In this document: piece after piece, positions 48,855 through 64,000 of the stretch
How the letters are laid out: every line of letters starts with the position of its first letter
Numbering within the stretch: the stretch's first letter is position 1
DNA from: Spirochaetales bacterium
Lineage (GTDB): Bacteria > Spirochaetota > Spirochaetia > JABEVK01
Assembly: GCA_947478845.1 (NCBI GenBank)
Contig: CANJXC010000006.1
Location: 491 to 64,490 of the forward strand
Reading direction: 5' to 3'
Length of the DNA stretch: 64,000 nucleotides
Translations under genes and position numbers: made by a program
Notes under the pieces: model-generated
Seen by the model: the letters and a program-made list of their open reading frames with translations, nothing else
Databases searched by the model: none
What the model was told of the DNA's origin: nothing

Positions 48855-48937
48855 GCGGCGGTGGTGAAATGGTAGACACGCCAGCTTGAGGTGCTGGTGG
48901 GCGCAAGCTCGTGAAGGTTCAAGTCCTTTTCGCCGCA
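48855..48937 (+). tRNA. tRNA-Leu(GAG), CCA not encoded
   Basis: Acceptor stem GCGGCGG/TCGCCGC, D arm GTGAAATGGTAGACAC, anticodon arm CCAGC-TTGAGGT-GCTGG, long variable arm, T arm GAAGG-TTCAAGT-CCTTT, discriminator A. Confidence 0.95.
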
Positions 48938-48952
48938 CAAGTAAGTGGCTTC

Positions 48953-51311: not shown

Positions 51312-51441
51312 CTGCCAGAAGGTGGACATCAAGTGGTCGAGACGTGGTGACTACTTTGTGGTCATTGTGGGATGGGGAGTGCCGTGGTGTAATGAACTCT
51401 GACTCTTCGTACGATCTGATGCTGGACCAAGGAGGTTCGTG

Positions 51442-52161
51442 ATGGGGCGGGGTGGCTACACCGGCGGGAGTTCATCGTTCAACATCTACAAAGGCGGATT
51501 TGCTTCTCACGACCCGGCTGCGCCCGACCCTGGTGTCGAAGTTTATCGTCCTGAAGTGAAGTTTGCGAAGCGAACAGCCGCAGCTCAACAAGTCAGGATT
51601 GATCAGGCGACAAAAGACTACATCTCCAGCATCATTGTCAGCTATCAGCTAGGTTCTATCTTGCCGCCCTGTCCGCCCGAGCTTCTGTCGGTGGTACATG
51701 CATCGATCAGAAAGGCAGGCGGTCCGCTGGAGTGGGTAAGGAGTCGGCCCGAATACCGCGAGATCTACGAGAAACACAGAAAAAAGTCGGTCACTAAAGC
51801 CGGTGAGCGGTATGAGGCTGACTTCCGGAAAGCCTGGGCCCGTGGCACTAGTCTACCTGAGCTACCTCCGGTGATCGCCGAAACCTTTGCGCTTGCGATC
51901 AAAGAGAAGGGGGGAGTACTTGAATGGACTCTCCTCAAACTCGACCTCGTCAAAGCACCCACGAAGTCGGCACGCACGTTCCCACCCTTGCCCCACCCGA
52001 TCTCGCCCCAAAACATCCAAGCCTATCTCCTCGAAGTGGGCTTCGGCGACGACAAAATGGAACTTTCTGACCTCGATTTGGAAGCCCTTTCGAAGCACCT
52101 CTTGAAGAAAGGAATACGAATCCCATTGAAGGACAGAAACATCAAGAGGAGTATAACTTGA
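51442..52161 (+). CDS. Hypothetical protein with an internal tandem repeat
   Basis: AAGGAGG SD. Two 41-aa repeats ending GGxLEW. Its stop overlaps the next start (TTGA). Confidence 0.75.
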   Translation: MGRGGYTGGSSSFNIYKGGFASHDPAAPDPGVEVYRPEVKFAKRTAAAQQVRIDQATKDYISSIIVSYQLGSILPPCPPELLSVVHASIRKAGGPLEWVRSRPEYREIYEKHRKKSVTKAGERYEADFRKAWARGTSLPELPPVIAETFALAIKEKGGVLEWTLLKLDLVKAPTKSARTFPPLPHPISPQNIQAYLLEVGFGDDKMELSDLDLEALSKHLLKKGIRIPLKDRNIKRSIT

Positions 52162-52553
52162 AGGCAGCGAAGAAACCCCAGCTCGCGAGCGTTGAGCAGC
52201 TCTTCGGAATGGAACCGCCTCAGGTCCATTGTTCCATTTGCGGCAAGACCCTTTTTCCCGATATGGAGAACATCGAGGGCGTCGAAGCCTGTGAGCACTT
52301 GGCCTTCGTCTTCTACGGCATTGCCGGAGAGTATGGCCACAAGTCGTCCGCCTTTGAAGCGAAGTTCCAGCCCGTCGAAGACGACTTTGACTCGTCGGAG
52401 TCCGTGACGGCGCTCGCCCAGGCCGGCTACAAGAACGAACTCCTCGTGCTCGAGATCACCTACGGTGGAATGGGCCACGGGCCAAGCTGTTACACCGACT
52501 TGTATGGGTTCGACTTCAGTATCGAACGAACCTCGGACCAAGAAGACCAATGA
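52158..52553 (+). CDS. Small acidic hypothetical protein with a CxxC...CxH putative Zn site
   Basis: TTG start with a GAGGAG SD. HCSICGK...ACEH. Overlaps both neighbours by 4 nt. Confidence 0.75.
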   Translation: MKAAKKPQLASVEQLFGMEPPQVHCSICGKTLFPDMENIEGVEACEHLAFVFYGIAGEYGHKSSAFEAKFQPVEDDFDSSESVTALAQAGYKNELLVLEITYGGMGHGPSCYTDLYGFDFSIERTSDQEDQ

Positions 52554-55345
52554 TTTACCGGCAGATTCTTGCGCACAATCGTCTCGAAAAGCCAGATGGA
52601 AGGCCCCTCTTTCGCTACCGCGTGCCGGAGCGCCTTCTGAATCCCCTCGACCTCGAGATCCGTTCCGGTCTCAAAGGAACTCCAACTTGGGAGGGCGCCC
52701 CCCTGTTTTGCCTTTGGGCTAGTCGAAAACTTCGCTCGCTGAGTGAGGACTTGCCCGGAAACCTGTCTTGGAACCAGCTCGGTCTAGGTCGTGAGTTTCC
52801 TCGAAGCCTCTTGGTTGGTTGGGCTGATCTCGGCCTGGAACGTTTGAAAAGGCCGATTGCAAAGAACGTCTCGGACGCCCACCTAAGGCTGCATACTCTC
52901 TTCCTCGAAGGTGGAGTGCCACTTCGTCAACTGCAACGGGATCTTTGGACGCAAGTGAAGACCCTCTTCACCTCGTTTCGTCCCCTTGGAACCGGTGCGA
53001 CCTTGGCTCACATACACGGTCGAGTAACCGAAAGCCTTCCCGATCTTCCACCTCTCAAGCTTCAGGCCCTCACGATCTTCTTGCGCGGGCTCGTTCAGCT
53101 GGATCAGGATGTGAGTTTTCAGCGATCGCTACCGAGCAACTGGGACGAGGCGACCGTTGCTAAGGCCTCGAGCCTCCTTAATGTCGAACTGCCTTCCGAT
53201 TTGGCTTGGCTGGATGCCCTGCTCCGCGAGACCCCGAGAGAGACCCGAAGGCGTACCTGTGGTGGTCTGTGGCTCGTCGAGGGTGTTCACTCCGGGGACG
53301 TGAAGTTGCTCTTTCAGCCTGACCTTCCAAGACGGCTTTCTCAGGGTGAGCTCACAGCGGACGTTTGGCTCCACCTGGTTTCAGACGGGAAGCGCACTTT
53401 TGTAGGTCGCTATGAAAAAACGGGTGAGGGACCGCTCCTCCAAGACCAGCGCCCTGTTGAGTTTGAACCGTCAAAGTCCTGGAACTCGGTTCGGCTCTTG
53501 GCGGAAGATGAAGACGACGAACCAGTTCGCTCGCCCGTTCAGCTTAAAGGTTTTGAAACCCCGAGTTTCCCTCTTGTCGCGCGCCGTGCTGACCTTTCGG
53601 CGACACGTTGGCTAGTCGTCCCCGCAAACTGGAAGCTCGTACAGGAAGGGCAAGCTCTCCTTCCAAGGGGTTCCTGGCTTGTCGCACCGTTTGAGCCCTC
53701 GGTTCAGATCTTCGACCCAGATGGGCAGCTCTTTGCGGTACCTGAACGAGAGGCTAAGCCGATTCCTCCCCTTGAAGGCTGGGAATCCCTGGAAGGGGTC
53801 CTTTTCGCAGGAAAGCCGGTTCGGACAAAGCTACCCCGAGAGATCACTGGTTGGGTTAAGGATCGAACCGAGGGACTTGTTACCTTTCGTTTCCTGGACG
53901 CAGAGGGCCGCACCAAGAGTCGCCAGCAGGAGGTTGTCCTTCCGGGTCTCTCCGTCGAAGGTAGGGTCTATCCCGCGGCCACGGCCCAAGAGCTTGCTAA
54001 GGTTCTCTGGACTGTTCGTCTTCCCTCGCCTTGGCATTTTGCCGAAACCGCCCGGGATCAGGGCGACGAAAAGGGCGTCTTCAAGTTTCGTACCGACTTC
54101 CGACAAGACCACGGAGACGAGGCTGGTGAACGTTTTCTTGTTACCGACGGTCTTCAGACTCTCACCTTGACTGCCTTTGCCTCGCCGCAGCTCTTCCTAT
54201 GCGAAACGGCCAACGCTCCGTTGCTTCAGGTCCACGAGTCGACCGTTTGGGAACAAGACCTCGTAGACCGCTGGTGGCTCTTCAAAACGAAGCGCGTGCG
54301 GGACCTGGTCGTCAATGATGAGGCTTTCGACCTCGATGTGCCCGAAGACGTCTCTTCGCGTCCAGGGCAGCTCTTGCTTCGGTCGTTTTCTGATCGCCTT
54401 CCCGTTCAGCCACACCCGACGGACCCCCTACGGAGTTTCCGTCAGCTTCGCTTGTTGGTACGTTCCAAGACCGTGGTGCACGCCGCTGGTTACCACGAGG
54501 AGTTACAGATAACGATCGAGAGTCACGCAATCGGTCTCGCTAGGTCGGCCTTGTTCCCCCTGGGGGAAGGTTTAAAGGTTCGAATCAACGCAGAGGGGTT
54601 GAGTCAACGCGAGCAGCCACCAGTCTTGCAGGTTCTTGCACTCTGGAACCCGAAAGCCGAGCCTCTGGTTCTCGCCCAGGAGGCCGACACTTATTGGCTT
54701 CCCGACGGCTGGCAGAATTATCCTGAAGGCATGTACTTACTCTATTGTGAGGCTCAGCCTAACTGGTTCCGGCCGGCCCTCTTTCCTCTCAACTCGGGGA
54801 GGACTTACGTTGGAGACTTGTCCCCCATGCAGCGGATTGCCCATGGGGAGGAGCTTGCTGAGCGACTCAAGGCCCTTCCCGCAGGAGAGGACAACTTCTA
54901 CAACCTCTCCCTTAAGGCATATTCAGAGCTCTTCCAGACCCTGCGCAACGATCCTGATAGCCCTGAATGGCTGACCCTTTGGCACACCCTTGGTCGTTTC
55001 GTGGCCTTTGGAACAGAGTTCCTTTTTCAGATCAAAGTGCTCCGCGAGCTCCTTCAGACCCCTGGGGAGGCGTCGGTTTCGGGCTTCCTCGGCCTTTTAT
55101 GGGCGGTGCGCGCAGGGTTTCTGGCGACCGGCGAAGCCGACTTGCCGGCCCATCGCCTAAATCGTCTCCTGAACAAGACCGAACGACCAGTGTTTGTCGA
55201 CTTCAAACTCAAACATCTAGCGACTAACTCTCAACTCGCTGGAGCTTTTGTTCAGGCTGTGGACCTTCTCCCAGAAACCTGGGTAGAAGGCCAAACCAGT
55301 CTCAAGGAAGTTCTAGCGGTTGTACGTCCGGAGGCCCACCCATGA
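52550..55345 (+). CDS. druH: DruH-like (STY4851/ECs_5259-type) protein
   Basis: The N-terminus KPDGRPLFRYR...LFCLWAS...SW...GL..L.RP...LHTLFLEGGVP matches the family as I recall it. It lies directly upstream of, and is coupled to, a DUF1998 helicase, the Druantia type III arrangement. Confidence 0.65.
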   Translation: MIYRQILAHNRLEKPDGRPLFRYRVPERLLNPLDLEIRSGLKGTPTWEGAPLFCLWASRKLRSLSEDLPGNLSWNQLGLGREFPRSLLVGWADLGLERLKRPIAKNVSDAHLRLHTLFLEGGVPLRQLQRDLWTQVKTLFTSFRPLGTGATLAHIHGRVTESLPDLPPLKLQALTIFLRGLVQLDQDVSFQRSLPSNWDEATVAKASSLLNVELPSDLAWLDALLRETPRETRRRTCGGLWLVEGVHSGDVKLLFQPDLPRRLSQGELTADVWLHLVSDGKRTFVGRYEKTGEGPLLQDQRPVEFEPSKSWNSVRLLAEDEDDEPVRSPVQLKGFETPSFPLVARRADLSATRWLVVPANWKLVQEGQALLPRGSWLVAPFEPSVQIFDPDGQLFAVPEREAKPIPPLEGWESLEGVLFAGKPVRTKLPREITGWVKDRTEGLVTFRFLDAEGRTKSRQQEVVLPGLSVEGRVYPAATAQELAKVLWTVRLPSPWHFAETARDQGDEKGVFKFRTDFRQDHGDEAGERFLVTDGLQTLTLTAFASPQLFLCETANAPLLQVHESTVWEQDLVDRWWLFKTKRVRDLVVNDEAFDLDVPEDVSSRPGQLLLRSFSDRLPVQPHPTDPLRSFRQLRLLVRSKTVVHAAGYHEELQITIESHAIGLARSALFPLGEGLKVRINAEGLSQREQPPVLQVLALWNPKAEPLVLAQEADTYWLPDGWQNYPEGMYLLYCEAQPNWFRPALFPLNSGRTYVGDLSPMQRIAHGEELAERLKALPAGEDNFYNLSLKAYSELFQTLRNDPDSPEWLTLWHTLGRFVAFGTEFLFQIKVLRELLQTPGEASVSGFLGLLWAVRAGFLATGEADLPAHRLNRLLNKTERPVFVDFKLKHLATNSQLAGAFVQAVDLLPETWVEGQTSLKEVLAVVRPEAHP

Positions 55346-58300
55346 ACCCTTTACTTGCTTTCCCCTCGGAACTCCGCAAGACTCTTGCGGAGGCAATTCT
55401 CTCCGACTGGAAACTCCGCAACGCCGACCTCGCCAACTGGCTGAAAACAGAGTTTACGAAAGAGGCCGGCTCTGACCTGTCATTGCTGGGTGAACCCCTC
55501 CTCAAGGCGCTTTTCGGCTATCGCCCCTACGAGAGATCCATGCGGCAGCTCGTGGACGACGGTTTGCTTAGCCGAAATCTTTTTGAGAAAGTGCCCCGCC
55601 TTCTCGGCGGTCTTGACAACTCAATGGCAAGACCGTACTCCCATCAGGGGGAGGCTTGGGCTTCGCTGCTAGCTCCAGAGCCAAGAGCCACGCTTCTCAG
55701 TGCCGGTACCGCCGCAGGCAAGACGCAGGCCTTTATGGTTCCCATCGTCAACTCCCTCGTCAGGCAACTTGAGGAGCGAGGTGAGGTGGAACAAGGAGTG
55801 CAGGCCTTGATCTTGTACCCGCTAAACGCCCTCATTGAGGACCAGCAACAACGGTTGACCGGCTACCTGAAACCGTTTCAAGGGGAACTTCGCTTCAGCC
55901 GCTGGAATGGTCTGACCCCGGAACAGGTCTCGAGGGCGGAACAAGCCAAGGTTCCGTGGGAAGTGTTGGACCGCTTCGGCATGCGTAACAGTCCTGCCTC
56001 GATTCTTATCACGAACATCACCATGCTCGAGTACCTCCTACTTCGGGACCAAGACGCTCCGATTTTGGCCAAGTCTCAAGGCAAACTTAAGTACGTTGTC
56101 GTTGACGAGGCACACAACTATCAGGGGGCTCAGGCCGAAGAATTGGCCCTTTTGCTCAAGCGCGTCCTTGATGCCTTCGGGGTAACTCCAAACGAGGTCC
56201 GTTTCTCAGCGTTCTCGGCTACCCTGGGGGATCGGACCAAGCCGGAGCCTCTCAGGAATTTTCTTCGGAACCTCTCTGGACGCACGGACTCTCGCCTCGA
56301 CGTGATCCATGACTCGCCCGTGTTCGTATCCCCCACGCTTGAGCCCAGCAACCCGTTCCTTCCTTGGACCCAAGCTCTTGAAGCCGCAGACAGCCATGCG
56401 GTTTTCGTCAAGGATTTACCGATTCTTTCCCAGACGAACGACCAGAAACCGCTCGAACTGCTGACCACCTTCACCCAAAAGGCGCCGGTGGGCACAGGTC
56501 TCAGCCTGCGCCTGAATCTCTTCGTGAAGACCTTGCCAGGACTCTTCGCCTGTTCCAATGCGAGCTGCCCGAGCCGACCTCCCGTGCCCTCCTGGAAGTA
56601 CGGTCAATTCTTGTCGGAACAACGTGAGACTTGCCCAGTTTGTTCTTACCCGGTTGGCCAAGTTGTGCGCTGCGGCTCCTGTGGCGAACCCCATCTCGCC
56701 CTTGCTGAAGACCCCGATGCGGCCGGGAAGCCGCACCTCAAGGCCCTAGGCGTGCCCTTCAAGACACTTGCGGAGGAGGAGGAGCAGGATGAGGAGCTCG
56801 ACCTCGATCCCGGGGTACTCCGCCTTCTGGGGCCTCCCCGTTCTGACAACTGTCGGTATCTTGAAGCGTCGGGTCGCGTATTCTCCACACCTTCAAAGGG
56901 CACACCCATCGCCTACGAGCTATATCTGGACTCCAACAAGAAGAACCAGCCGAGTTGCCTTGGTTGTTCGGCTAGGGGACTCCGACATTTCTCGCCCTTG
57001 AGGGCGGATGAGCCCTTTCTGCTCAATCAGTTTCCCTCGGCCGTTCTGAAGGTTTCCTCTCCTTCGTTGGCGGCCAGTAGTGAGGATCTTCCTTGGCAAG
57101 GAAGACGAGCGCTAAGTTTCACCGATGCCCGTCAAAAGACGGCACGCTACGCGCTCAACGCTCGCCTCGACGCGGAACGTAACTGGGTAAGACAGTGGCT
57201 TCTGCGGTTCTTGGCGTTGAAGGGTGGTCGTACGCCTAGAGTTCTCATCAATGCCCTGGACCTCGAATTGCAGAAGCCAACACGCGCGTACCTTCGAGAG
57301 TACTATCAGCCTGCACTCACGAGCCCACGGGATCTTGCCACCGTTCTGGTTCTTCGAGAACTTGGGCGTCGCTCGCTCCGGGGGACAAACCTCGAGGCCC
57401 TCGGACTTCTAGCTCTCGACTTCCCCGAACTTCAGGAGGTAGTCCTTCCGGTCGTCGCCGCCGAACTCCAGGTGGACCTCGCAAATTGGCGTCAGTTCCT
57501 TGCCGTTTTTCTCACAACAAGGGTTCGCACCAACTGGTGGCTGGACCTCGACGAGTTGGACTCGGCCACCGAGTGGCTCCAGGCCTACGTGACCTACAAT
57601 CGGCAACGCCCCCTTCTCAAGAGTTTCGTTCCGGAGGACTGCTCCTTCGTAAACAAGACTACCCAGAAGGCCAATTCCTACGGCGAACTTCTGTTTGGGA
57701 TGGACACGCAAGTTCTCGAAGACGAGACCGTTCACGAACGCTTAAAGCATGCGGTTTTTGATAGTTTGAAGTCCGTCTGCAATCTTGGGCTCGACAACGG
57801 GCTTCGACTGGATTTCCTCAACAAAGTCTCGGTTCGTCTTTTACCGGAGTTCTGGTACGGCACTGGTTTCGGTGAGGTGGTTTCCGAGACGGTCCAAGGG
57901 CGACATCCTCTCTTTGGTCGGGGCGAGCCAAAGAAACTGGCGTGGAACCTCGATTTTCCCAACCTGTTTCACAGCAGGGCGCAGGAACTGGAACCTTCCG
58001 TGGAGGCCCGCCTGACGGAACTCCGCGAGTTAGGGTTTTGGAACCACTATCACCAACGGCTCCTAACTGGAACCCACGACTTCGTCGTTCAGGAACACAG
58101 CGCCCAGATTCCACCGGCGGAGCTCAAAGTGAGAAACCAAGGCTTTCGGGACGGAACGATCAACTACTTGTTCTGTACTACGACCATGGAAATGGGCGTC
58201 GATATAGGCGAGCTGAACGCGGTAGTCATGAACAACGTACCGCCGCTCCCCGGCAACTATCAGCAGCGCGCCGGGCGCGCGGGTCGCGCCGGTCAACCCG

Positions 58301-59988
58301 TCTCGCTTGCCCTTACCTTGTGTCCGCCACGTCCGCTCGCGCTGCAACTCTACCAGAACCCCCGCTGGCTTCTCGGCCCGACGAAGGTCCCTCAGGTAAG
58401 GTTCCGCTCTCGTGAAGTCGTTTTTCGGCAGTTCCGTGCTTTGGCCCTAGGCCTTTGGGTTCGAGAGACGAACACGCACGACCCTTGGAAGAGCGTCAAG
58501 GACTTCTTTTTAGCTGATTCAGGCGTTGAAAGCCGCAGCGAAACGTTTCTGGCCTGGCTTTCAGCTCCTCCCGAAAAAGCAAAACTCCAACTATCAGACT
58601 TCCTCAACGGGACGCCCTTTGACGGCCTCTCCACCTTAGCAACTCGTCTGGCAGGCGAGAACCTACAAGAAGTTGCCGAGGCCTGGACTTCGTTGCGGGT
58701 ACGCCTTGAGCAGGACCTGCTCACGGTAAAGCGGGAAGGCAACTCAAAGGCAGAAGGTGCGGTCAACAGTCGGCTTCAGGCGGTTGAGGGTGAGAATCTG
58801 ATCGTGCATCTCTGCAGGCAGCTTTTCCTTCCTAGCTATGGCTTTCCGACCCGCGTCGTGGAACTCGAACTCCCCAAGACGTATTACGCTGGGACAGGGG
58901 GGCGTGGCCACCAAAGAGGTGGAGAGGGCCCCAGTCGCTCCCTCTCGATGGCCCTTCGCGAATACGCACCCAGCGCGAGCGTGCTTCTCGATCAGCACAA
59001 TTTCCGCGTCGCAGGAGTTCTCCCGAAGAGCCGGTTTCAAGCCGACAGCAAACTGCCCATCGTCAAGAACGACGTCTGGTATTGTTTGAACTGCGGCACT
59101 TCGGGGGATGGCTTTCTCGAGACGTGTCCGGTCTGCGCCAAACCCGTTGAGCATGTGGCCTATCTAGAACCTCAAGGGTTCTCCGTCGATGAGGCCCGGC
59201 CCCTGGTACCCTTGGACGAGGATTCGCAACGCGGGACCGTAGAGGTTCGGCCCCTATTGCCGACGGACGGAAAGGCCAGTGCTCGGTACTCCTCTGCCGA
59301 CAACAGACTCGTACTAGACCTGTACCAAGAAGGCTCTGGTCGCGTGTTCCAGGCCAATCGTGGCCTTGGCAAGCGCCCCTTTTTCTCGGGCTTCATCTAC
59401 TGCTGGGATTGTCATAGAGCGGTGCTCCATACCCCCGGTTCGGCGTGGCGCGAGGAGTTTACCCTAAACACTGCGGGCCGGCACTACCACCTCACAAAGC
59501 CCGGTCAGTTCTGCAAAGCCAGCGAGAACCAACTGCACCTGAAGATGTCACTGGGCTTCGTCATGAAGACTGACGTCTTGGTCTTTCGGGGTTCAAGCTT
59601 GTGGGGCGAGGACGAAGTTGTTGCCTGGACTCTCGGCGAAGCTCTTCGCGAAGTCCTGGCCCAAGACCTCAGCATCGTTGTCGATGATCTCGGTTTGGAA
59701 CTGGTGGCCTGGGAAGGGCAACTGGTCGTAGTCTTCTTCGATAGCCAAGAAGGGGGAGCGGGGCTAGTGGCCCAGATCCCGGAACTGTTGCCGAGCCTGT
59801 GGACTCGAGCCCTTAGGTTGCTTTCGTGTCGAGACGCGACCGACCAAGGCTGCGACGTTGTGTGTCACCACTGTCTGCTTTCAAGTCACACGCAGTTTCG
59901 TGCCGATCAGAGGCTGCTCGATCGCAAGAAGGGCCTTGCGGCCTTGCGAAGCTGGACGCCGGACCAGCTCAAGAAGGAGGTTTTGTGA
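55342..59988 (+). CDS. druE: Large SF2 DEAH helicase with Zn-finger inserts and a C-terminal DUF1998 (DruE-like)
   Basis: Q motif PYSHQ, GTAAGKT, YPLNALIEDQ, TNITMLEYLLLR, DEAH, SATLG, FTDARQ, EHSAQ, TTTMEMGVDIG, YQQRAGRAGR. DUF1998 reads FDSQEGGAG...C...C..VCHHCL. Confidence 0.85.
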   Translation: MNPLLAFPSELRKTLAEAILSDWKLRNADLANWLKTEFTKEAGSDLSLLGEPLLKALFGYRPYERSMRQLVDDGLLSRNLFEKVPRLLGGLDNSMARPYSHQGEAWASLLAPEPRATLLSAGTAAGKTQAFMVPIVNSLVRQLEERGEVEQGVQALILYPLNALIEDQQQRLTGYLKPFQGELRFSRWNGLTPEQVSRAEQAKVPWEVLDRFGMRNSPASILITNITMLEYLLLRDQDAPILAKSQGKLKYVVVDEAHNYQGAQAEELALLLKRVLDAFGVTPNEVRFSAFSATLGDRTKPEPLRNFLRNLSGRTDSRLDVIHDSPVFVSPTLEPSNPFLPWTQALEAADSHAVFVKDLPILSQTNDQKPLELLTTFTQKAPVGTGLSLRLNLFVKTLPGLFACSNASCPSRPPVPSWKYGQFLSEQRETCPVCSYPVGQVVRCGSCGEPHLALAEDPDAAGKPHLKALGVPFKTLAEEEEQDEELDLDPGVLRLLGPPRSDNCRYLEASGRVFSTPSKGTPIAYELYLDSNKKNQPSCLGCSARGLRHFSPLRADEPFLLNQFPSAVLKVSSPSLAASSEDLPWQGRRALSFTDARQKTARYALNARLDAERNWVRQWLLRFLALKGGRTPRVLINALDLELQKPTRAYLREYYQPALTSPRDLATVLVLRELGRRSLRGTNLEALGLLALDFPELQEVVLPVVAAELQVDLANWRQFLAVFLTTRVRTNWWLDLDELDSATEWLQAYVTYNRQRPLLKSFVPEDCSFVNKTTQKANSYGELLFGMDTQVLEDETVHERLKHAVFDSLKSVCNLGLDNGLRLDFLNKVSVRLLPEFWYGTGFGEVVSETVQGRHPLFGRGEPKKLAWNLDFPNLFHSRAQELEPSVEARLTELRELGFWNHYHQRLLTGTHDFVVQEHSAQIPPAELKVRNQGFRDGTINYLFCTTTMEMGVDIGELNAVVMNNVPPLPGNYQQRAGRAGRAGQPVSLALTLCPPRPLALQLYQNPRWLLGPTKVPQVRFRSREVVFRQFRALALGLWVRETNTHDPWKSVKDFFLADSGVESRSETFLAWLSAPPEKAKLQLSDFLNGTPFDGLSTLATRLAGENLQEVAEAWTSLRVRLEQDLLTVKREGNSKAEGAVNSRLQAVEGENLIVHLCRQLFLPSYGFPTRVVELELPKTYYAGTGGRGHQRGGEGPSRSLSMALREYAPSASVLLDQHNFRVAGVLPKSRFQADSKLPIVKNDVWYCLNCGTSGDGFLETCPVCAKPVEHVAYLEPQGFSVDEARPLVPLDEDSQRGTVEVRPLLPTDGKASARYSSADNRLVLDLYQEGSGRVFQANRGLGKRPFFSGFIYCWDCHRAVLHTPGSAWREEFTLNTAGRHYHLTKPGQFCKASENQLHLKMSLGFVMKTDVLVFRGSSLWGEDEVVAWTLGEALREVLAQDLSIVVDDLGLELVAWEGQLVVVFFDSQEGGAGLVAQIPELLPSLWTRALRLLSCRDATDQGCDVVCHHCLLSSHTQFRADQRLLDRKKGLAALRSWTPDQLKKEVL

Positions 59989-60041
59989 CCCAAGCCTTTC
60001 ACTCGCAGTGCGATCCATGCTGGAATGGTGCCCATGGCTAA
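59985..60041 (+). other. 18-codon mini-ORF bridging the helicase stop and the res start
   Basis: AAGGAGG SD plus a GTG overlapping the helicase TGA. Its TAA (60039-60041) lies inside ATGGCTAA of res. Confidence 0.45.
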
Positions 60042-63000
60042 CCCCTTCTTCGACCAACCGATTCTGAACTCTCCTTACGAGAAACCGGGCCGCCACTGGG
60101 AACTCGATGCGGAAGGGCAACCAACCCAGCAAATCATCCTTCGGCGACGCGAAGCGAAGTTCGTGACGCCGATTCCCAAGGCCAAGACCAGCGGAACTGG
60201 TGGCCGCAAAGGTTCCAAGAAAAAAGGGCAGGACACCTCAAAGTTGCTCGACCTCGTCTACGACGAGCAGGCTGCCGCCGTTTCAACGGACGAGCTGAAC
60301 TATGACCTGACGCAGACGATCAGTTCACTCCGTCACCAGGTAGACGAATGGCGCGCCCTGACAAACCCGAGTGACTGGAGGGTGACACCTGAAACGGCGC
60401 GCCTGCTCCAACATTGGCGCAGCCACCCCTTTACCAGCGTTCGCCCGTTCTTCTGCCAGCTGGAGGCCGTCGAGACCCTCATTTGGTTGACTGAAGTTGC
60501 TCCCAAGGCCGGCAAGAAGGGGGAGGACTTCCTGTCGAGCCTCAACGCCGCCAACGAGCAGGCCAACCCAGGCCTCGACCGTGTGGCCCTGAAACTGGCA
60601 ACCGGTGCCGGCAAAACTACGGTCATGGCCCTCGTCATCGCGTGGCAGACCATCAACGCCGTCCGTTACAAGAACAGCCGCTTCACGAAAGCCTTCCTGA
60701 TCGTCACCCCAGGGATCACGATCCGTGACCGGCTTCGGGTATTGCAACCCAATGACCCCGATAGTTACTACAAGAGCCGTGAGCTGGTTCCCGAGGAGTT
60801 GCTTCCCGAGCTCCAGAAGGCTCGCATCGTCATCACGAACTACCATGCCTTCAAACTCCGCGAGAAACTCGAACTCTCCAAGGGCACCCGATCGCTCCTT
60901 CAGGGCAACGGCGAGGATCTCAAGACGCTCGAGTCCGAAGGGCAGATGTTGCAGCGGGTGATGCCCGAGCTCCTAAACCTCAAGAATGTGCTGGTGCTGA
61001 ACGACGAGGCCCACCATTGCTACCAGGCTCGTCCAGAAACGAACGAGGAGAAGGAACTTCGCGGCGAGGAAAAGGCGGAGGCCGAGGAAAACAAGAAGGC
61101 GGCCAGCCTCTGGATCAACGGCCTGCGCGCGGTCGGAAATCAGCTCGGTTTGAACAAGGTCCTCGACCTCTCGGCAACCCCGTTCTTCCTCCGTGGCTCG
61201 GGCTACCAGGAAGGGACGCTCTTCCCGTGGACGATGTCCGACTTCTCGCTGATGGATGCGATCGAGTGCGGCATCGTTAAGCTTCCCCGCGTCCCCATTT
61301 CCGACAACATCTCCGGCGAGGAACTACCCATGTTCCGCAACCTTTGGGCCCACATCCGCGACAAGATGCCCAAGAAGGGACGTGGCAAGGGCGACGATGG
61401 CTTTCTGGATCCACATTCTCTACCCCCCCCGCTGTTGACGGCCCTTGAGGCGCTTTACGGCCACTACAAGGCCACCTACGAAGCCTGGGAGTCCGAAGGG
61501 ATGGGCGTGCCCCCATGCCTCATTGTAGTTTGTAATAACGTCACTGCCTCCAAACTCGTTTACGACTACATCTCGGGCTTCAATAGGCCCCACTCGGACG
61601 GGAGCACAAGTTTTGAGCACGGGAGACTCGAGCTTTTTCAGAACTTCGACAAAAACGGCACCCCCCATGCAAGACCTCGCACCCTGCTGATTGACAGCCG
61701 TGAACTCGACTCAGGCGAACCACTTAGTGACGCTTTCCATAAGGCGGCTGCAAGCGAACTTGAACGCTTTAGGCGCGAATACATTGAACGGACAAACGAT
61801 GTTGTTGGAGCCGCAAACCTAAAGGACGAAGACATACTCCGGGAAGTCATGAACACAGTCGGGAAGAGGGGACGTCTTGGCGCCTCGATTCGTTGCGTTG
61901 TCTCAGTTTCCATGCTGACCGAAGGTTGGGACACCAACACGGTGACGCACGTGCTCGGCGTGCGAGCGTTCGGCACCCAGCTGTTGTGCGAGCAGGTCGT
62001 CGGCCGAGCGCTCCGGCGCCAATCCTACGAGCTGAACGAAGAAAAGCTCTTCAACGTCGAGTATGCAGACGTGCTCGGCATTCCCTTCGACTTCACGGCA
62101 ACCCCAGTGTTGCCCAAGCCGATCAAGCCGCGTGAAACCGTGCAGGTGTTCGCAATCCGGCCCGACCGCGATGCGCTCGAGCTCACGTTCCCCCGGGTGA
62201 AAGGCTACCGCATCAAGCTCGAAGACCAGACACTTACCGCGCAATTCACCGAAGACTCGAAGCTTGTGCTGAGCGAAGAGCTCATCGGATCGACCCTGAC
62301 AGTAACATCAGGCATCATCGGCAAAACCGCCGAACTCAATCTCGAACACACAGGCGACCTTCGTCGATCAACCCTTGTGTACGAACTCACGTCGTACCTT
62401 TTGCTGAACTTCTGGAAGGATGAAGACGGCAATCCGCGCCTGACGCTCTTCAACAAATTGCGACCCCACGTGATGAAGTGGCTCGACCACTACTTGGTAT
62501 GCGAACCCGGAACCTACCCGGCCCAGCTGCGCTACAAATACCTTGCGAACTTGGCCGCAGAACGGATTCAAAACGCAATCACGCGGTCGGAGCAGCAGAA
62601 CAACCGTCCCGTGCTCGCCGTGCTCGACCCGTACAACCCGCAGGGGTCCACCAAACACGTTAACTTCTACACGTCGAATCCTCTGAAGTGGGAGACAAGG
62701 GCCGACAGGTGCCACGTCAACTGGGCCATTCTCGACAGCACTTGGGAAAAGGAGTTCTGTCGGGTGGTCGAGAACCACCCTCGGGTGCTAGCCTACGTGA
62801 AGAATCAGGACCTCGGTTTCGAGGTGCCGTACCTGATGGGGGCCGAGAAGCGGACCTACCTACCGGACTTTCTGGTGCACCTGGACGACGGTCACCGGCC
62901 TGAAGACCCGCTCAACTTGATCGTCGAGATCAAGGGCTACCGGGGCGAAGACGCCAAGACCAAGCGCGAGACCATGGACGTCTACTGGGTCCCCGGGGTG

Positions 63001-63153
63001 AATAACCTGGGCACCCACGGCCGCTGGGCGTTCGTGGAGCTCACCAACTTGTATCAGATGGAGGCCGACTTCGAGGCCTCGCTCACCCCGACCGTAAACC
63101 AGGCCTTTGAGGCCTTCGCTCAACCTGCCAACGCTGGAGCTAAGCATGCCTAA
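60034..63153 (+). CDS. res: Type III-like restriction subunit (SF2 helicase plus PD-(D/E)xK nuclease, BPTD_3080-type)
   Basis: RPFFCQLEA, KLATGAGKT, NDEAHH, LSATP, SMLTEGWD, QVVGRALRR, and the C-terminal YLPDF...IVEIKG. Confidence 0.88.
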   Translation: MANPFFDQPILNSPYEKPGRHWELDAEGQPTQQIILRRREAKFVTPIPKAKTSGTGGRKGSKKKGQDTSKLLDLVYDEQAAAVSTDELNYDLTQTISSLRHQVDEWRALTNPSDWRVTPETARLLQHWRSHPFTSVRPFFCQLEAVETLIWLTEVAPKAGKKGEDFLSSLNAANEQANPGLDRVALKLATGAGKTTVMALVIAWQTINAVRYKNSRFTKAFLIVTPGITIRDRLRVLQPNDPDSYYKSRELVPEELLPELQKARIVITNYHAFKLREKLELSKGTRSLLQGNGEDLKTLESEGQMLQRVMPELLNLKNVLVLNDEAHHCYQARPETNEEKELRGEEKAEAEENKKAASLWINGLRAVGNQLGLNKVLDLSATPFFLRGSGYQEGTLFPWTMSDFSLMDAIECGIVKLPRVPISDNISGEELPMFRNLWAHIRDKMPKKGRGKGDDGFLDPHSLPPPLLTALEALYGHYKATYEAWESEGMGVPPCLIVVCNNVTASKLVYDYISGFNRPHSDGSTSFEHGRLELFQNFDKNGTPHARPRTLLIDSRELDSGEPLSDAFHKAAASELERFRREYIERTNDVVGAANLKDEDILREVMNTVGKRGRLGASIRCVVSVSMLTEGWDTNTVTHVLGVRAFGTQLLCEQVVGRALRRQSYELNEEKLFNVEYADVLGIPFDFTATPVLPKPIKPRETVQVFAIRPDRDALELTFPRVKGYRIKLEDQTLTAQFTEDSKLVLSEELIGSTLTVTSGIIGKTAELNLEHTGDLRRSTLVYELTSYLLLNFWKDEDGNPRLTLFNKLRPHVMKWLDHYLVCEPGTYPAQLRYKYLANLAAERIQNAITRSEQQNNRPVLAVLDPYNPQGSTKHVNFYTSNPLKWETRADRCHVNWAILDSTWEKEFCRVVENHPRVLAYVKNQDLGFEVPYLMGAEKRTYLPDFLVHLDDGHRPEDPLNLIVEIKGYRGEDAKTKRETMDVYWVPGVNNLGTHGRWAFVELTNLYQMEADFEASLTPTVNQAFEAFAQPANAGAKHA

Positions 63154-64000
63154 GGATCTCGAAACCTTCCTGCACAACGACGAAACCCGCAAGAATCTCC
63201 CCACCGCCGAATACCAGGCCCTCGCTGATCCGCAGCTTAACGCGGCGATGAAGGTGGCGTTCGAGCGCCGCAACCCTGAACTCGACCCGCAGTTTGTGTG
63301 GCGCGGGAAGGACACCCAGGACTGGTCCGATCTGGTGGTCAACGCGCCTCCGCTGTACGTGCAGGAAAAGGTGCACCCCAAGGTGTTGATCGATGATCTG
63401 TTGAGGCAGACCGCAGCAAACCGTAAGCCCGACGATCAGATTGATCTCTTTGGTGACTTTGACGGAAAGGCCGTCGGCGCGGGAAAGACCGACTTCTATC
63501 AGCAGGAAGTGCCGTGGACTAACCGGATGATTCTAGGTGACAGCCTGAACGTGATGGCTAGTCTGGCGGAGCGTGATGGGCTTCGAGGAAAGGTGCAATG
63601 CATTTATCTTGATCCGCCGTATGGTATCAAGTTCAATAGCAACTTTCAGTGGAGTACGACGACAACTACCGTTAAAGATGGAGACCCAGCACACATTAGT
63701 CGCGAGCCTGAGATGGTTAAGGCATTTCGTGACACATGGCGTAATGGTATTCATAGCTACTTGACCTACCTTAGAGATAGGCTTGCAGTAGGCCGGGACC
63801 TTCTCTCCGATTCCGGATGTATCTTCGTTCAAATTGGAGACGAAAACGTTCATCGCATTCGCTCACTCTTGGATGAAGTGTTCGGCGATGAGAACTTTGT
63901 CAGCGAGATTGTAGTAGTTAAGACTTCGGGATTGGGCGCGAACACCCTTCCGAGACAAAACGATTTTATCCTCAAGTATGCGAAAGACCTGGATCGACTG
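63146..64000 (+). CDS. mod: Site-specific N6-adenine DNA methyltransferase (type III Mod-like), truncated by the window end
   Basis: Hand translation from ATG 63146: MPKDLETFLHNDETRKNLPTAE...NRMILGDSLNVM...IYLDPPYGIKFNSN...SYLTYLRDRL...IFVQIGDENVH. The frame is open to 64000. Missing from the ORF track because it has no stop. Confidence 0.92.
   Translation, partial: MPKDLETFLHNDETRKNLPTAEYQALADPQLNAAMKVAFERRNPELDPQFVWRGKDTQDWSDLVVNAPPLYVQEKVHPKVLIDDLLRQTAANRKPDDQIDLFGDFDGKAVGAGKTDFYQQEVPWTNRMILGDSLNVMASLAERDGLRGKVQCIYLDPPYGIKFNSNFQWSTTTTTVKDGDPAHISREPEMVKAFRDTWRNGIHSYLTYLRDRLAVGRDLLSDSGCIFVQIGDENVHRIRSLLDEVFGDENFVSEIVVVKTSGLGANTLPRQNDFILKYAKDLDRL

Follow-up and report, generated by a model that had tools for sequence, protein, structure and literature searches.

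Druantia type III defence systems consist of two genes, druH followed by druE, the second encoding a large YprA-like superfamily 2 (SF2) helicase. In the canonical subtype III-A (Escherichia coli EDL933/ATCC8739 and Pseudomonas aeruginosa; PDB entries 9tu7-9tud), DruE is about 2000-2100 amino acids (aa) long and its C-terminal extension is made of two PLD nuclease-like domains, named PLDi/PLDa in one preprint and PLD1/PLD2 in another. A distinct branch of Druantia III-like systems, with helicases that most often have no nuclease domain at all, has also been described, its III-B DruE being without PLDs (Bell et al. 2025, bioRxiv 10.1101/2025.09.15.676423), and in Mycobacterium smegmatis a two-gene system made of a DruH of 1132 aa and a DruE of 1667 aa for which only helicase and DUF1998 domains are annotated (MSMEG_1253/1254) provides defence (PMC13316683). 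Here we describe a druH-druE locus carried by a Spirochaetales bacterium (GenBank assembly GCA_947478845.1, contig CANJXC010000006.1, positions 491 to 64,490 of the forward strand; this whole stretch of 64,000 nucleotides (nt) is called the window hereafter). We propose that druH (52550-55345, plus strand) and druE (55342-59988, plus strand) very probably form a complete and self-contained Druantia type III defence module of a rare lineage, so far found almost only in Spirochaetales-type genomes, and that the type III restriction-modification (R-M) genes res and mod that follow belong to a separate module.

Whether Druantia III uses the PLDs of DruE as its effector nuclease is disputed among four 2026 preprints: in two, mutations at PLD sites are reported to abolish defence, one finds the PLDs fully dispensable and one models a nuclease-free mechanism. 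The P. aeruginosa work found the PLDs to be required for defence, and a second E. coli study found that nuclease activity depends on them. A truncated E. coli protein, DruE 1-1723, is able to bind and unwind DNA, to hydrolyse ATP and to protect against Bas26 (bioRxiv 10.64898/2026.05.13.724758), and the fourth study considers the PLDs inactive. DruH is a single-stranded DNA (ssDNA) binder in one study and an exonuclease according to two preprints. Nuclease-less DruE proteins have already been published (III-B, the M. smegmatis DruHE pair and E. coli DruE 1-1723), and what the window adds is a natural relative of III-A DruE that is missing both the PLDs and, judging by alignment, the dimerisation domain (DD).

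The druE gene of the window is complete and ends shortly after the MZB domain

The druE frame spans 1548 codons with zero internal stops. Its product carries a RecA1 domain at residues 100-296 (Pfam DEAD; 55639-56229, plus strand) with its Walker A motif (A-GTAAGKT, residues 121-128, 55702-55725), its DEAH motif at residues 255-258 and its SAT motif at residues 292-294, then a RecA2 domain at residues 907-984 (Pfam Helicase_C; 58060-58293, plus strand) that includes motif VI (QRAGRAGR, residues 975-982), and finally a zinc-binding MZB domain, formerly DUF1998, at residues 1432-1512 (Pfam; 59635-59877, plus strand). Seven CxxC motifs and one Cx4C motif are present. The final cysteine of the protein, C1511, belongs to the cluster C1496...C1504..C1508HHC1511 and is followed by 37 aa; past the Pfam boundary, the C-terminal tail (59878-59988, plus strand) is made of 36 aa and the stop codon and contains a conserved LLDRK..G helix.

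Among PADLOC models, DruE3 (PDLC00037) matches this protein best (E = 6e-302), with DruE1 (E = 3e-126), DruE2 and DruE4 far behind, and the best solved structure is chain 9tu7_Y (DruE, 2108 aa; E = 2.5e-157 with HMMER). It therefore fits the definition of a Druantia III helicase: it is a large SF2 protein of the YprA-like type, it has DEAH, Helicase_C and DUF1998/MZB regions, and its best match is DruE3. A first-pass annotation, made from the sequence alone, had described a DruE-type helicase with intact SF2 motifs (Walker A variant GTAAGKT) and several CxxC motifs that stops about 35 aa past the DUF1998 cysteine cluster, and the Pfam and motif checks, the alignment to PADLOC models and the count of residues agree with it on all these points. 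Another PADLOC DruE3 model, PDLC00035 (1460 positions), was considered as a sign that a short form is already known and then set aside, since its alignment stops at residue ~1319 of the window's DruE, before the MZB domain, and is therefore silent on the C-terminus.

DruE lacks the PLD domains and any large insert that could replace them

The same annotation had stated that DruH-associated helicases in enterobacteria are longer (about 2000 aa or more) and continue past DUF1998 into a putative nuclease region. This was correct: of the 119 other best homologues, 116 show no more than 35% identity in their best BLAST segment, and most are 2000-2137 aa long. Chain 9tu7_Y runs ~390 aa beyond the endpoint of the window's DruE, and published structures resolve this extension as the two PLD domains. 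When aligned with E. coli-type DruE, a C-terminal extension of 369 aa is absent from the window's protein, whose endpoint is equivalent to E. coli residue ~1729 and so falls at the same domain boundary as the engineered E. coli DruE 1-1723. The two PLD-like domains that follow the MZB domain in III-A are therefore both absent here.

A hidden Markov model (HMM) of the PLD tail was built from 213 III-A tails and recovered its positive control at 7.8e-35. When all 2.99 Mb of the genome were translated in six frames and searched with this HMM, nothing came up at E <= 10, and no match was found in any fetched locus bearing a PLD-less DruE. The idea of a split gene, with the PLDs encoded apart, was rejected on these grounds; the 388-aa gene that follows the PLD-less druE of protein P0054 is not a PLD tail either. 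No lineage-specific insert of the window's DruE exceeds 24 aa, which leaves no room for a cryptic substitute, and an effector hidden inside the protein was rejected on this ground.

The same endpoint is shared by a rare clade of homologues

Close homologues of this DruE are rare. A word-indexed search of 5.8 billion proteins returned only three of them, which are 44-49% identical to it and 1545, 1456 and 1423 aa long. An extra scan of GTDB species genomes added two loci: L009, from a Spirochaetales metagenome-assembled genome (MAG), where DruE is 64% identical and its open reading frame (ORF) encodes exactly 1548 aa, and L010, where druE is cut by the contig end. We refer to these proteins and the window's DruE as the short clade; its five other loci come mostly from Spirochaetales MAGs, with DruE identities of 44-64%. 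The complete members are those of the window and L009 (1548 aa), P0005 (1545 aa), P0006 (1456 aa) and P0007 (1423 aa), and each of them stops no more than ~37 aa past its final MZB cysteine. Their CRDA..GC..C..C motif is invariant, and an alignment of four short-clade proteins showed no variation in the helicase motifs or in any of the four cysteines of the MZB domain. Judging from these comparisons, a length of 1423-1548 aa is the normal full-length form in this lineage.

A druH-like gene precedes druE in all short-clade loci

The gene upstream of druE encodes 931 aa and shares its last 4 nt, at the stop, with the beginning of druE. A DruH-like gene of 914-944 aa lies immediately upstream of druE and overlaps its start in six of six short-clade loci. 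The match of the window's protein to PADLOC DruH3 is weak (E = 5.6e-7, residues 5-128), and a profile of six DruH orthologues searched against the PDB hit chain 9tud_A 'DruH' (E = 5e-11, query 8-182 to chain 19-203). This N-terminal domain (residues 8-182; 52571-53095, plus strand), homologous to that of III-A DruH, is the sole part with homology to DruH that can be detected by sequence; unlike its III-A counterparts, the window's DruH is ~190 aa shorter (~930 versus 1100-1200 aa) and shows no such similarity past the N-domain. Pfam YjiT_N is recorded on short-clade orthologues.

An AlphaFold2 model of the druH product (mean predicted local distance difference test score 76) displays a helical N-domain (1-226), a beta-rich middle of ~515 aa (235-750) and a helical C-domain (759-925). 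This predicted order is the same as that published for DruH, in which an N-domain is followed by six Ig-like domains and a helical C-domain. Foldseek comparison of the model with the PDB gave only generic multi-Ig proteins with TM scores below 0.16, from a library older than the DruH entries, which makes this comparison uninformative. A large DruH gene is thus found upstream of druE, and no DruA-D or DruM/F/G gene accompanies it at the window's locus, as in Druantia III.

By alignment, the short clade lacks the dimerisation insert, and in trees it is sister to III-A

The E. coli DruE dimerisation domain is a helical stalk at residues 678-759. At the equivalent site (residues 620-659; 57199-57318, plus strand), the window's DruE has ~40 residues where E. 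coli-type DruE has this domain of ~80 aa: when aligned with 9tu7_Y using HMMER, query 619 pairs with chain residue 673 and query 660 with chain residue 798, so that 40 aa stand opposite 124 aa (chain 674-797). In an alignment with E. coli-type DruE, the window's protein is short by 67 aa after residue 632 and by 36 aa after residue 353; compared with III-A in general, it is short by ~80 aa at the DD site and by ~35 aa in the 330-400 segment. The median length of the DD-site segment is 45 aa in the short clade, 98 aa in III-A and 45 aa in the III-B-like set introduced below. The window's DruE therefore appears, from its alignment, to be without the ~80-aa dimerisation insert and the stalk that are found in III-A. 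If so, the way in which it assembles and contacts DruH should not be that seen in the E. coli and P. aeruginosa structures. The missing insert also distinguishes it from the engineered E. coli DruE 1-1723, which retains the dimerisation domain that is essential in E. coli.

When 1.84 billion representatives were searched exhaustively by HMMER with the C-terminal 648 aa, four short-clade representatives scored 584-722 bits, after which scores drop to 255 bits. We then compared the short clade with III-A and with a III-B-like PLD-less family of 1564-1700 aa (Ilumatobacter, Ferrimicrobium, Acidimicrobiales, Gemmatimonas), used as a proxy for the published III-B branch; plasmid matches from Streptomyces and Rhodococcus were rejected as III-B references, as they are members of other helicase systems. 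The tree was built from 67 sequences and 1307 columns (MAFFT FFT-NS-2, trimmed columns; FastTree and IQ-TREE LG+G4), including 34 III-A and 19 actinobacterial-type PLD-less sequences. It recovered the short clade (support 100), a group joining the short clade and III-A (100), III-A alone (99) and a separate III-B-like clade (100). The short clade is thus sister to all 34 sampled III-A sequences rather than branching within III-A, and apart from the 19 actinobacterial-type PLD-less ones, a single clade of short-clade and III-B-like proxy sequences being rejected by the approximately unbiased (AU) test (p = 0.011).

Since the short clade and the III-B-like outgroup both lack PLDs, the PLD pair is most simply explained as a gain in III-A. 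The first-pass annotation had called this DruE a shortened variant; from its place in the tree, that reading is probably backwards, the PLD pair having been gained by III-A and the window's DruE never having been shortened. PLD-less alleles are also scattered inside III-A, as 29 of 214 N-complete proteins (short clade counted) end at most 40 aa from the endpoint of the window's DruE. Some of those inside III-A lie on long contigs and are 1659-1713 aa long (P0131 at locus L080; P0054 at L081/L082). In the case of P0131, on a 4.77-Mb contig, the upstream DruH is split into pieces of 516 and 587 aa, which suggests that this locus is in decay.

The best surviving alternative is that the module simply belongs to the published subtype III-B instead of a separate lineage. 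The architecture is indeed the same, with a compact DruE that ends after the MZB domain without any nuclease domain, a segment of ~45 residues where III-A has the DD, and two genes, druH then druE, so that DruE is paired only with a DruH-sized protein, as in III-B and M. smegmatis; the published III-B representative GIH50614.1 was not among the sequences of our tree. Yet, the short clade groups with III-A rather than with the actinobacterial-type PLD-less family. III-A has the same two-gene context, and its DruE is built on the same core (RecA1, zinc-binding inserts, RecA2, OB/zinc region and MZB), with 28-35% identity across the whole of it. The HMMER gap from 584 to 255 bits separates the short clade sharply from everything else. 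Moreover, the window's DruH keeps an N-domain of the III-A type, unlike the III-B-like partner that we tested, a 1117-aa protein encoded next to an actinobacterial DruE (L070, 10532-13885, minus strand) that has no PADLOC DruH match and no sequence match to solved DruH. We therefore consider membership of III-B rather unlikely. If III-B 'DruH' proteins are related to III-A DruH, the relationship may thus be no more than remote.

The type III R-M genes are not a constant partner of druHE

Downstream of druE, and outside the druHE module, lie a gene for the type III restriction subunit Res (60025-63153, plus strand; 1042 aa, Pfam ResIII and RE_endonuc) and a gene for the type III methyltransferase Mod (63107-64000, plus strand; PADLOC MTase_III, E = 1.3e-120) that runs off the window and encodes 935 aa in the genome. 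The druE stop and res lie just 36 nt apart, and no terminator-like site was found in this gap. The first-pass annotation had proposed that the short DruE may rely on the PD-(D/E)xK nuclease of this coupled Res protein, and had suggested checking whether short druE genes recur beside res/mod.

They do not: type III R-M genes are found in one of six short-clade loci, that of the window, and the sole constant neighbour of short druE is druH. L009 has McrB/McrC downstream of druE; L002/L008 has a divergent CRISPR-Cas upstream and a housekeeping dehydrogenase 3 nt downstream; L010 shares the Cas6 neighbourhood of L002; L003 has a Cas_APE2256 protein upstream; and L001 is flanked by three unknown convergent genes. 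Conversely, among 401 genomes of the phylum, the short DruE was found in the window's own genome only, and Res homologues (44-59% identity) were found in three, with mod following in the same order and no druH or druE within 10 kb upstream of res. Considering that flanks vary among short-clade loci and that res-mod occurs in genomes without druHE, the two modules are distributed independently. In these three res-mod loci (L089, L090 and L091), Mod is 46-64% identical to that of the window, and a UvrD-like homologue (41%) again follows res-mod in L089; conserved companions of the type III R-M genes therefore lie downstream (RmuC-like, UvrD-like) and are not Druantia genes.

Two readings that would give DruE a nuclease from its neighbourhood have to be weighed against this background. 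In the first, the spirochaete clade would be a third Druantia III lineage in which DruE, having no PLDs and no DD, acts as a monomeric DNA-unwinding sensor, killing being left entirely to DruH or to a downstream restriction nuclease (Res here, McrBC in the closest relative); we regard this as quite improbable, and, if true, it would be a natural case of hand-off from a helicase to a neighbouring nuclease. In the second, druHE and res would form a composite system in which the PLD-less DruE uses the PD-(D/E)xK nuclease of a co-transcribed Res as its effector, resembling the hand-off of DNA intermediates from E. coli Druantia III to Zorya ZorE. The short gap without a terminator-like site is in line with this, and so is the restriction nuclease system (McrBC) that also comes next, in the same orientation, at L009, the locus of the closest homologue. 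However, the partner is not conserved, the druE of L002 lying directly before housekeeping genes, res-mod does without druHE elsewhere and has its conserved companion downstream instead of upstream, and PLD-less DruHE pairs function alone in M. smegmatis, so that we judge such a composite system very unlikely.

Decay of a former ~2000-aa DruE that lost its PLD region by deletion or by insertion of the R-M genes, the other explanation that had been offered, is largely refuted and extremely unlikely: although the window's DruE is ~500 aa shorter than most homologues and some PLD-less alleles inside III-A look degenerate (e.g. P0131 beside its split DruH), its frame is intact, its helicase motifs and four MZB cysteines are invariant in the aligned short-clade proteins, its endpoint is shared by five homologues of 44-64% identity, one of them likewise of 1548 aa, PLD-like sequence is found nowhere in the genome and the short clade is sister to all III-A, not nested within. 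Thus, the view that this DruE is without an effector or nuclease domain of its own stands, while the two explanations that came with it, reliance on Res and a 3'-truncated relic, find no support. The first-pass annotation had itself named the outcome that would undo its proposal, namely that close homologues of about 1550 aa are the normal form and occur without R-M neighbours, and this is what we found (1423-1548 aa; five of six loci without type III R-M).

Proposed mechanism and significance

Altogether, gene integrity, domain content, the conserved endpoint, phylogenetic position and independence from neighbouring genes all point to druHE as a self-contained module, and the window's locus is an ordinary compact module of Druantia III, probably a functional one, within a defence island. 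Several points weigh against this. The PLD-site mutations reported in two preprints abolish III-A defence or nuclease activity, so a PLD-less DruE may work differently, and E. coli DruE without its dimerisation domain gives no protection, while the short clade is without that insert. Homology of the partner to DruH by sequence is limited to its N-terminal ~180 aa, and its structural model was built on six sequences and has a predicted TM score of 0.41. The III-B-like set is a proxy taken from Actinomycetota genomes with a DruH-sized gene and a ~1600-aa DruE, not the published representative. Finally, given the 36-nt gap without a terminator, druE and res may be co-transcribed and may act additively or synergistically.

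By analogy with the characterised III-A and M. smegmatis systems, from which helicase activity, a role for DruH and a defence function are extended to the window's module, we propose the following mechanism. DruE would be a helicase-only motor (RecA1, RecA2, zinc-binding inserts, OB/zinc region and MZB) with no nuclease of its own, which would load on exposed 3' ssDNA or on forked intermediates of phage replication or recombination and unwind them 3'-to-5' using ATP. DruH, as a sensor, ssDNA binder and possibly exonuclease, would supply whichever DNA-destroying or DNA-sequestering activity is needed. The downstream type III R-M system is a separate defence module of the same tRNA-Leu-linked island, maybe co-transcribed and additive, and not a required partner. 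A nuclease acting in trans is known for other YprA-family systems, MrfA/YprA (with MrfB) and DISARM DrmA-DrmB (with DrmC), which share with DruE the SF2 core and the OB plus DUF1998/MZB canopy; DruE is far larger than these helicases, carries zinc and duplex-binding inserts of its own that they lack, and is paired with a DruH, for which they have no equivalent.

The short clade, which is closest to III-A and has no PLDs and no dimerisation domain but conserves druH and every helicase and zinc motif, is a ready-made test object for the dispute over the PLDs. If the window's druHE defends alone, then the minimal Druantia III machine would be a helicase core plus DruH. Otherwise the locus is ordinary: compact nuclease-less DruE proteins are common, III-B-like sequences of 1570-1700 aa numbering in the thousands, and the R-M system is just one more occupant of the defence island.

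The defence island and other loci

The druHE module lies within a long co-directional defence island that begins after a tRNA-Leu(GAG) gene (48855-48938), itself located directly after pepF; this tRNA gene is a plausible integration site. Beyond the 3' end of the window (genome C6:64000-80000, L054), the island continues with an RmuC-like gene (PADLOC RTasRmuC, 7.9e-73), a UvrD/GajB-like helicase, an SfsA-like nuclease, an NsnB-like AAA_15 ATPase (1.6e-69), two unknown genes, a 983-aa retron-type reverse transcriptase, a 256-aa N6/N4 methylase and a 294-aa ORF.

At another short-clade locus, the three convergent genes that adjoin druHE (L001, 7675-14762, minus strand) encode 375, 1430 and 569 aa and gave no Pfam or PADLOC assignment apart from a weak AAA_22 match in the 1430-aa product. 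This three-gene set may be an undescribed defence system.

Two small overlapping ORFs of 240 and 131 aa (51439-52553, plus strand) run straight into druH in the window. They were considered as Druantia components and rejected, since none of the five other short-clade loci carries them and the same genome has a paralogous pair on contig C1 (195601-196277, minus strand; 56% and 34% identity). Near this C1 pair, at a distance of a few kb, lie paralogues of the reverse transcriptase (56% over 341 aa) and of the methylase (49%), and in the window's contig the reverse transcriptase and methylase genes come ~23 kb downstream of the two ORFs. These genes look like one module (orf240-orf131-...-reverse transcriptase-methylase) that was split at the window's locus by a block of other defence genes.

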